This document shows, one piece after another, positions 42,902-43,828 of a DNA stretch of 64,000 nucleotides. The stretch lies in NCBI RefSeq assembly GCF_030013205.1, contig NZ_CP122648.1; one strand, 5' to 3'. A model generated the notes under the pieces. The model was not told the DNA's origin. It ran no database searches and worked only from the letters and a program-made list of their open reading frames with translations. Both the position numbers and the translations under genes were made by a program. This DNA comes from Escherichia coli (GTDB lineage Bacteria > Pseudomonadota > Gammaproteobacteria > Enterobacterales > Enterobacteriaceae). Positions within the stretch are counted from its first letter, which is position 1, and each line of letters starts with the position of its first letter.

Positions 42902-43246
42902 TCATCGTAAAATATCCTCCACGCTTATCAGTCCGTTCCGCTCCAGATAACTCATCGCCTTATCCGGTAATTTGCAGTCTGGCTTCGCTTTCCTCAGTTG
43001 CCAGGTTAACTGCTTTACCAGCATGGTTAACTCATCGACCAGACGCTGATATCCCACTGGTTTGTATTCATGCAATTTACCGGCTGGCTCTGCTGCCAGC
43101 GATACCAGTGCGATTTCCAGAACAGCAATATCCATCTTATATGTGCGGATGATGTCATGGTCGATTGTGCCCGGTATGCACAGTCTCTGTGCTTCAATAG
43201 TCTCCTCTGCGTGAGCTATTAACTGCTCTCTGGTAAAAGTCGTCAT
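42902..43246 (-). CDS. Hypothetical prophage protein
   Basis: 114 aa ORF. Confidence 0.4.
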
Positions 43247-43608
43247 GCCGTAGCCCCTTCTTGATATTTTTCAAACCAGAACACAACTGGGTCAGATTTC
43301 ATTTCAACCAATCCCATACGAACCAGCGCTTTGCCTTTCCCGGACGCAAGGAATTCACGACGACCATCACTGATAATTCGCCGATAATCTTCCAGACTAC
43401 TGCAATGCTTGTGCAGATTGCATGGGTGGCATGCCGGAACCATGTTGGATATATCGTCACGTTCCTGGTGAAGCATATTTCCATCAAAACGAATGACCGG
43501 TTTTACATGGTCTGCATGCCACTTTTCGCCAAGTTCGCAGCCGCAATAAGCACAGCGACCGCCGAACTTCATGCGCAGCTCTGCACGTTGTTTTTTCGTC
43601 AGTGCCAT
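43243..43608 (-). CDS. HNH endonuclease
   Basis: CAYCGCEL...WHADHVKP...CHPCNLHKH; start taken at MALTKKQ. Confidence 0.75.
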
Positions 43609-43609
43609 A

Positions 43610-43828
43610 TCAGCTTTCCTTATACGGATTAATTTTATTGTGCAGTGTGTTGAACGACGCCCACACCACGTCGTTATACAATTCAATAACTGGCTCAATT
43701 ATTTTCACGATAAACCAGACCAGTAATAGCGGGGATATCGGTATCATCAACACGATAAATATAATGAGAAACAAAAATTCTGTCGCTCTACTTTTTCTCG
43801 GATATTCTTTTCTGAATAATGTAGTCAT
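43610..43828 (-). CDS. Hypothetical small single-TM protein
   Basis: 72 aa, hydrophobic stretch FLFLIIFIVLMIPISPLLLVWFIV; stop abuts the HNH start. Confidence 0.4.
   Translation of the reverse strand: MTTLFRKEYPRKSRATEFLFLIIFIVLMIPISPLLLVWFIVKIIEPVIELYNDVVWASFNTLHNKINPYKES

Follow-up and report, generated by a model that had tools for sequence, protein, structure and literature searches.

In the present analysis, we describe a pair of adjoining minus-strand genes in a 64,000-nucleotide stretch of Escherichia coli DNA (hereafter the window; contig NZ_CP122648.1 of RefSeq assembly GCF_030013205.1), the first encoding a 72-residue DUF4014 family protein and the second a 121-residue HNH nuclease. 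The two open reading frames (ORFs) lie end to end, and an earlier sequence-only reading had taken this tight pairing of a small membrane protein with a nuclease to be typical of an abortive-infection or anti-phage module. That interpretation was not supported by comparison across genomes: the same junction geometry is seen with any partner, the genes occur apart more often than together, and no defence family is matched beyond the generic HNH motif. The DUF4014 and HNH genes are probably two independent single-gene cassettes in the early accessory (ea/nin-like) region of a defective lambdoid prophage. Both are already known, being annotated members of large families in a common arrangement, and in E. 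coli chromosomes that are 100% identical RefSeq names them ‘DUF4014 family protein’ and ‘HNH endonuclease’. The features that carry the argument are the following, with their basis in brackets:

43610..43828, minus strand: DUF4014 family protein, 72 aa (Pfam PF13198, phrog_1832, RefSeq annotation, hydropathy, and the ratio of nonsynonymous to synonymous substitution rates, dN/dS).
43243..43608, minus strand: stand-alone zinc-finger HNH (beta-beta-alpha-Me) endonuclease, 121 aa (Pfam PF01844, phrog_2118, AlphaFold2 model with fold match, dN/dS).
43606..43622, minus strand: mosaic joint between DUF4014 and HNH, made up of the Shine-Dalgarno sequence AAGGA, TGA, one nucleotide and ATG GCA (sequence and joint alignment).
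43243..43246, minus strand: ATGA stop/start overlap between HNH and a downstream gene of 114 aa (sequence).

The HNH gene starts at the ATG at 43608, as in RefSeq and in all homologues (MALTKKQ); this start was used in place of the upstream TTG at 43698 given by the program-made ORF list. The DUF4014 stop codon TGA occupies 43612-43610 and the HNH start codon 43608-43606, and the Shine-Dalgarno sequence AAGGA of HNH falls inside the final DUF4014 codons. The junction is thus as tight as had been noted, although the gap consists of a single nucleotide (43609) and not of the 2 bp originally given. The AT-richness reported for 43700-43870 is likewise real but extends further, with a GC fraction of 0.35-0.40 across about 43600-44200 compared to about 0.46-0.50 on the flanks.

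How far this geometry depends on the identity of the two genes can be read from loci sampled in IMG/VR, comprising 80 DUF4014 loci (88-100% identity), 80 window-type HNH loci (85-100% identity), and 80 loci from each of two sister HNH clades, termed g341c-type and HK225-type. A 1-nt gap precedes the nuclease gene in 59/80 HNH loci, whatever the partner, and the gap downstream of DUF4014 is 1 nt in 77 of 80 loci, across ten downstream gene families. Whatever the neighbour, a spacing of -1 to +3 nt from the upstream gene is the most frequent one in each of the three HNH clades, and on the downstream side the 4-nt ATGA overlap is the commonest arrangement (73/80, 54/80, and 58/80 loci in the three clades), in front of many different genes. 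When six junctions with unrelated upstream or downstream genes were aligned, a common joint was obtained, AAGGAnnnTGAnATGGCA. Because gap and overlap are independent of the neighbour and the joint is common to unrelated pairs, the coupling is generic.

The limits of homology point in the same direction. Where DUF4014 is missing, nucleotide homology to the window sets in 0-13 nt ahead of the HNH ATG and runs out 5-18 nt past the stop codon; it breaks off sharply at the ends of the ORF, indicating that the HNH ORF itself is what is exchanged. DUF4014 is no nuclease and yet is flanked by 16 neighbour families upstream and 10 downstream, a promiscuity equal to that of HNH, and thus the mobility of HNH requires no special mechanism. 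The pattern is that of classical lambdoid mosaicism, in which gene-sized modules are delimited by short conserved boundary sequences. In lambdoid ea/nin regions, a 1-nt gap or an ATGA overlap accordingly says nothing about partnership, as every cassette is joined in this way.

Linkage between the two genes was measured in the same samples and in a census of 5,426 complete E. coli genomes, which were searched for the DUF4014 gene, the full-length HNH allele, and a 221-bp junction probe. DUF4014 turned up in 1,007 genomes, at 1,712 places in all; 384 genomes have the HNH allele at full length, and 216 gave a match to the junction probe. Among the IMG/VR loci, HNH lies directly downstream of DUF4014 in 33/80 by tblastn and in 28-29/80 by ORF clustering, the other occupants of this position being an 87-aa gene, an Ea22-like gene, a zinc-finger gene, and L0066; in 933W and about 100 related Shiga toxin (Stx) phage records, DUF4014 (L0067) is followed by the unrelated L0066 with the 1-nt gap kept. 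Viewed from the nuclease, DUF4014 is the upstream gene in approximately 43 of 80 loci and is missing from the surrounding 2.5 kb in 37/80, including many loci whose HNH proteins are 98-100% identical to that of the window. HNH copies at least 98% identical have about ten upstream and about nine downstream neighbour families, and the alternative upstream neighbours of window-type HNH are not hydrophobic. The outer neighbours are similarly variable: the 114-aa gene follows HNH in about 30/80 HNH loci (25 by ORF clustering) and is also found after other genes, and a 70-aa gene precedes DUF4014 in 38 of the 80 DUF4014 loci. The co-occurrence check that the sequence-only reading had proposed thus returns a linkage that is only partial.

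In g341c, NM-3 (Salmonella), and HK225 (E. coli), the order of the pair is reversed, with an HNH gene (50-61% identical) placed directly upstream of a DUF4014 gene (47-49% identical) and an ATGA overlap between them. This order is a minority arrangement, as 11/42 g341c-type DUF4014 loci have HNH upstream; counted from the nuclease, 4/80 loci of the g341c-type clade and 7/80 of the HK225-type clade adjoin DUF4014, again in reversed order.

These data show that the genes of the region are packed head to tail through a joint of about 17 nt (Shine-Dalgarno sequence in the end of the upstream gene, stop codon, 1 nt, ATG GCA) and through ATGA overlaps, with adjacent cistrons appearing to be translationally coupled irrespective of their identity. 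Gene-sized modules are exchanged between phages at these conserved joints, and the two genes assort independently. We propose that both are transcribed with the early operon. The HNH protein would act alone, as a non-essential accessory nuclease that nicks or cleaves DNA in the phage early programme, with no need of the membrane protein to trigger it as an effector; DUF4014 may have a separate, host-directed role as an N-in inner-membrane protein. The adjacency of HNH and DUF4014 would then represent one common recombinant arrangement that spread, without constituting a functional unit.

Several observations sit less comfortably with independent cassettes. Adjacency of HNH and DUF4014 recurs in two orders and in divergent clades, with DUF4014 placed first in E. 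coli Stx-type phages and HNH first in g341c, NM-3, and HK225. This is more than naive random expectation would predict, and a relationship of function or of target site could lie behind it. Because oversequenced Enterobacteriaceae make up most of the sample, the fractions given above are not counts of independent events, and the C-terminal half of HNH, including its invariant VFWFE motif, is poorly modelled. We consider it improbable that the juxtaposition in both orders is other than chance, either because HNH homes in or beside DUF4014 or because DUF4014 modulates HNH in facultative exclusion; were this the case, a function would be at hand for a very common pair of orphan prophage genes.

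The motifs that had been recognized in the HNH protein (CxxC, HADH, and CHPCN) are all intact, comprising C19xxC22, H31-A-D-H34, N55, and C60-H-P-C63-N64. The protein scores 28.2 bits against Pfam PF01844 (cut-off 21.4), which places it among the His-Me finger nucleases, and matches phrog_2118 with E=9e-57; the catalytic His, the structural Asn, and the metal-binding Asn/His are in place, as are the two CxxC zinc knuckles of this subclass. Across 19 homologues, C19, C22, H31, D33, H34, N55, C60, C63, N64, and K67 are invariant, and dN/dS is 0.02-0.10, as measured against homologues with saturated synonymous divergence. Given the invariant cysteine, histidine, aspartate, and asparagine residues, the low dN/dS, and the HNH fold, the enzyme is intact, functional, and under strong purifying selection. 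Its AlphaFold2 model has a mean pLDDT (per-residue confidence score) of 71, with a core of approximately 80-88 and an unreliable stretch of 50 residues at the C-terminus, and a fold search with this model returned 4h9d as the best match in the Protein Data Bank (PDB), followed by the HNH domains of Cap5, McrA, and Cas9; since the model is unreliable at the C-terminus, the search speaks for a generic HNH fold only. Sequence searches detected no DNA-recognition domain in the protein, whose C-terminal half is poorly modelled.

The HNH family is large, with 2,452 clusters at 90% identity. Every one of the 120 best family matches listed is a stand-alone protein 135-157 aa long, and homologues examined otherwise reach about 175 aa; the members seen come mostly from Enterobacterales prophages and are named just ‘HNH endonuclease’. 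The exact protein of the window occurs on at least 1,000 contigs from several genera. Relatives in unrelated phages include those of the T1-like phage IMM-001 (77% identical, among small early genes), of Bas77 (Dhillonvirus-like; 49% identical, two small genes upstream of the large terminase gene), of eiAU (between polymerase and helicase), and of Klebsiella phage 37P2 (after an Ea22-like gene). Further relatives are found in P22-like prophages and in Acinetobacter, Vibrio, and Caulobacter phages. Across all these phage types, some members are annotated ‘homing endonuclease’. In the family alignment, the N- and C-termini are nearly identical and the middle falls to about 50% identity, and the g341c-type proteins carry an insertion of 17-19 aa after the HADH segment. 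The conserved ends may be the product of recombination within the gene or may represent functional end motifs, VFWFE being invariant.

Two loci are notable at the 3' end of the nuclease gene. One HNH-less locus (L084:2995-3162) has a chimeric 55-aa ORF in which an Ea22-like N-terminus is fused to the final 15 codons of HNH; a 114-aa gene of 100% identity follows immediately. The ORF is a relic of an HNH gene lost or replaced by recombination within its 3' end. In IMM-001 (L009:2715-3111), HNH and the gene just upstream end with the same 23 nt, save for one mismatch, TTGAG[C/A]AATTGAATAAGATTTAA; a direct repeat therefore brackets the HNH cassette, whose C-terminal EKLNKI copies that of the neighbour. 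Compared with the HNH-less T1-like phage CY1, IMM-001 has about 700 bp in place of about 300 bp of other DNA, which is not a simple insertion.

The small protein encoded upstream, which begins MTTLFRKEYPRKSRATEFLFLIIFIVLMIPISPLLLVWFIVKIIEP, matches Pfam PF13198 over residues 1-71 of 72 (E=6e-24, 84.6 bits, cut-off 23.2) and phrog_1832 with E=1e-43, and is thereby a member of the DUF4014 family. The single hydrophobic segment reported earlier for the 72-aa product of 43610-43828 is indeed present, at about residues 18-41 (maximum 19-residue Kyte-Doolittle mean 3.0). It is preceded by a basic N-terminus (RKEYPRKSR) and followed by a C-terminal tail of about 30 aa that ends in a conserved HNKxNPY. 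DUF4014 is thus predicted to be a small single-pass inner-membrane protein, for which the basic N-terminus suggests an N-in topology. Purifying selection on the gene (dN/dS 0.13-0.42) is weaker than on HNH, and the exact protein was found on 934 contigs. Two further names attach to the family, ‘acetyltransferase inhibitor’, which goes back to an early annotation of epsilon15, and the PHROGs phrase ‘released from the phage upon host infection’. For neither could an experiment be traced; a literature search on DUF4014, on both of these database names, and on lambdoid HNH genes with Ea22 returned nothing relevant.

The 32-nt spacer in front of DUF4014 reads CCGCCC GAAA GGGCGG at its centre and folds with -21.6 kcal/mol (z=-4.1). 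The element is kept before DUF4014 behind two different upstream sequences, and other DUF4014 copies have a plain coupling joint instead; no compensatory changes were seen in the hairpin. By analogy with T4 gene 38, it could serve as a split Shine-Dalgarno element, or it could stabilize the mRNA. The leader and the further features around the pair are as follows:

43829..43860, minus strand: DUF4014 leader, consisting of AGGAGG, a 7-bp G+C hairpin with a GAAA tetraloop, UAAGAA and AUG (fold -21.6 kcal/mol, z=-4.1).
43861..44073, minus strand: 70-aa hypothetical protein (phrog_4659), the upstream neighbour of DUF4014 (ORF list and PHROG match).
42902..43246, minus strand: 114-aa hypothetical protein, Ea22-like C-terminal part (phrog_660, E=8e-43).
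42141..42703, plus strand: ParD/ParE type II toxin-antitoxin pair (RefSeq annotation).

Chromosomes of pig-associated E. coli (e.g., K_EC180 and O139:H1 strains) match the window at 100% identity, and in them the RefSeq annotation delimits a defective lambdoid prophage extending from tRNA-Ser at about 31200 to a frameshifted integrase at about 51270-52290. Within it, the minus-strand genes follow the order P-like loader, DUF1627, DUF977 (Ren-like), 137-aa zinc-ribbon protein, 70-aa protein, DUF4014, HNH, and 114-aa Ea22-like protein, beyond which come ParD/ParE on the opposite strand and then DUF968, RusA, and Q. A scan for promoters and terminators gave no excess over shuffled sequence, and there is thus no evidence for either gene as an autonomously transcribed moron. 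In the Stx2a phage ArgO145, the block formed by ParDE, the 114-aa gene, HNH, and DUF4014 (gp08-gp12) has the same arrangement and adjoins the integrase, and the two agree at 97.8% identity over a compared 1.2-kb segment with the 114-aa and 70-aa genes at its ends. Because the position beside the integrase differs from that in the prophage, the block has evidently moved between the ea and nin-like regions of phages. The ParD/ParE pair, which is oriented against the early operon, accompanies the 114aa-HNH-DUF4014 block in both the prophage and ArgO145. Relative to the window, ArgO145 (L001:5017-6000) carries about 1.07 kb of extra DNA between DUF4014 and the 70-aa gene, annotated with three genes (one ead/Ea22-like and two small), another cassette-level insertion at the same joints.

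Decay of the prophage is documented by the annotation of the identical K_EC180 chromosome, which lists truncated tail genes, a truncated O-like (DnaT-like) gene, the frameshifted integrase, an IS1 insertion beside pseudogenes downstream of Q, and a frameshifted gene with a 3'-5' exoribonuclease domain, together with a Qin-like dicB/ydfC immunity region. The packaging genes have been lost, and no terminase gene remains in the prophage according to its RefSeq annotation. The same operon encodes a second HNH-type protein, a 349-aa DUF968/YdfU-like product (40682-41731, minus strand) assigned to phrog_96 ‘HNH endonuclease’ and having an HNHc_6-like C-terminus; RusA and Q come after it, and two distinct zinc-finger nuclease-like genes are thus located within 3 kb.

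Three other accounts of the nuclease merit consideration, the first being that DUF4014 senses or gates and HNH is the effector of a two-gene abortive-infection or superinfection-exclusion module. Defence genes are frequent in prophage accessory regions, ParDE next door travels with the block, two clades have the genes side by side and retain them so with several different outer neighbours, and the HNH motif resembles that of the Septu PtuB and retron HNH effectors (PADLOC PtuB, E=3e-8; TIGR02646, E=1.6e-4). Yet co-occurrence in a conserved arrangement, as expected of a two-gene system, is a minority condition (216/1,007 DUF4014 genomes; 4/80 and 7/80 loci for the two sister clades of HNH), 37/80 close HNH loci have no DUF4014, and the order of the genes varies. 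The possibility that some other, non-homologous membrane protein of small size stands in for DUF4014 was considered and rejected: the alternative neighbours are non-hydrophobic in window-type loci, and small hydrophobic ones are rare in both sister clades. The NCBIfam and PADLOC scans returned sub-threshold, motif-level matches to PtuB, retron HNH, and IscB, which reflect the generic HNH motif alone and lie far under the family cut-offs (the best, PtuB at 3e-8, covers about 70 residues); no PtuA-like ATPase is encoded nearby, and PADLOC gave no credible defence-family match for DUF4014. The profile and structure searches suggested earlier thus led to the DUF4014 family and a generic HNH fold, with no defence system identified, and we regard a defence module as very improbable. 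A nuclease assisting terminase cleavage, like the packaging HNH gp74 of HK97, is more improbable still. The proteins are close in size (121 aa against 119 aa), the 49%-identical Bas77 relative lies two small genes upstream of a large terminase gene, and the best structural match, 4h9d, is a small stand-alone HNH of prophage type. However, no similarity to HK97 gp74 was detected (BLASTP gave no alignment, and hhalign a probability of 0.2%), and in the window, ArgO145, g341c, and HK225 the gene occupies early ea/nin regions far from any terminase. In the window, terminase and portal genes do not adjoin HNH, which lies between the replication genes and ParDE/DUF968/RusA/Q, and the prophage itself is devoid of packaging genes. 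A packaging role is thus already largely refuted at this locus by synteny and sequence.

Small HNH homing enzymes exist, for example the Mob proteins of T4, and HNH may in principle be a free-standing, selfish endonuclease of this type, which cuts HNH-less alleles and is copied in by recombinational repair; its adjacency to DUF4014 on either side, and hence in both orders, would then place the target in or beside the conserved DUF4014 gene. The sporadic spread over unrelated phage types, the ‘homing endonuclease’ annotation of some members, the gene-sized presence/absence polymorphism, the 55-aa chimeric ORF with the final 15 HNH codons in an HNH-less locus, and the imperfect 23-nt direct repeat flanking the IMM-001 copy are all compatible with such an element. 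Against this, near-identical HNH proteins occur in about ten flank contexts, a poor fit to one specific target site; homology runs no more than 0-18 nt past either end of the gene, and graded tracts of co-conversion are absent; and the slot in HNH-less loci holds another gene rather than an empty site. DUF4014, a non-nuclease neighbour, is equally promiscuous, the constraint on HNH (dN/dS 0.02-0.10, dS being saturated) is unusually strict for an element that is selfish and nothing more, and sequence searches detected no DNA-recognition domain, the C-terminal half being poorly modelled. The homing alternative raised by the sequence-only reading is not specifically supported, in that HNH is no more mobile than its non-nuclease neighbours and its homology ends are sharp; a homing-type role is not needed to explain the data, and we consider it rather unlikely, although it is the main rival. 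That reading had named as its refutation a standard packaging-associated or homing HNH whose linkage to the small membrane ORF is not conserved, and the outcome comes close to this, in the form of a standard phage HNH without such conserved linkage. The importance of the pair is small beyond housekeeping, and the main lesson is methodological.

In comparison with known systems, HNH resembles Septu PtuB and retron HNH proteins (TIGR02646) in the HNH motif region, scoring 21.8 bits against a cut-off of 52; it falls outside Septu, being half the length of PtuB and having no PtuA AAA ATPase or retron nearby. Like the T4 Mob family and enzymes of the I-HmuI type, it is encoded by a small HNH gene placed sporadically between conserved phage genes, but it differs from them in that no specific target or insertion site, co-conversion tracts, or accessory DNA-binding domain were seen and purifying selection is very strong. 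The HNH nicking endonuclease Gme of Geobacter metallireducens (PDB 4H9D) is the best PDB sequence match, and the one found (E=0.058), as well as the best fold match (Foldseek E=0.04, probability 0.95), and is likewise a small, stand-alone, zinc-finger HNH protein with the DH...N...CxxCN pattern; the alignment is limited to an HNH core of about 50 residues at 22-28% identity, and nothing in Gme corresponds to the C-terminal half of the window protein. The closest relatives are the stand-alone phage HNH proteins of PHROG 2118/PF01844, among which ArgO145 gp11 is 100% identical in protein and HK225 gp55, g341c gp24, and the IMM-001 HNH are 50-77% identical. The CxxC, HADH, N, and CxxCN motifs, the N-terminus, and the C-terminal VVFWFE are common to members of PHROG 2118 and the window HNH, which is thus a plain member of that family. 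The same holds for DUF4014/PHROG 1832, in which 933W L0067 is 88% identical and g341c gp23 49% identical, both with the same single transmembrane segment and HNKxNPY end; epsilon15 orf46 and ES18 gp39 are further named members, and the window protein differs in nothing from this family.

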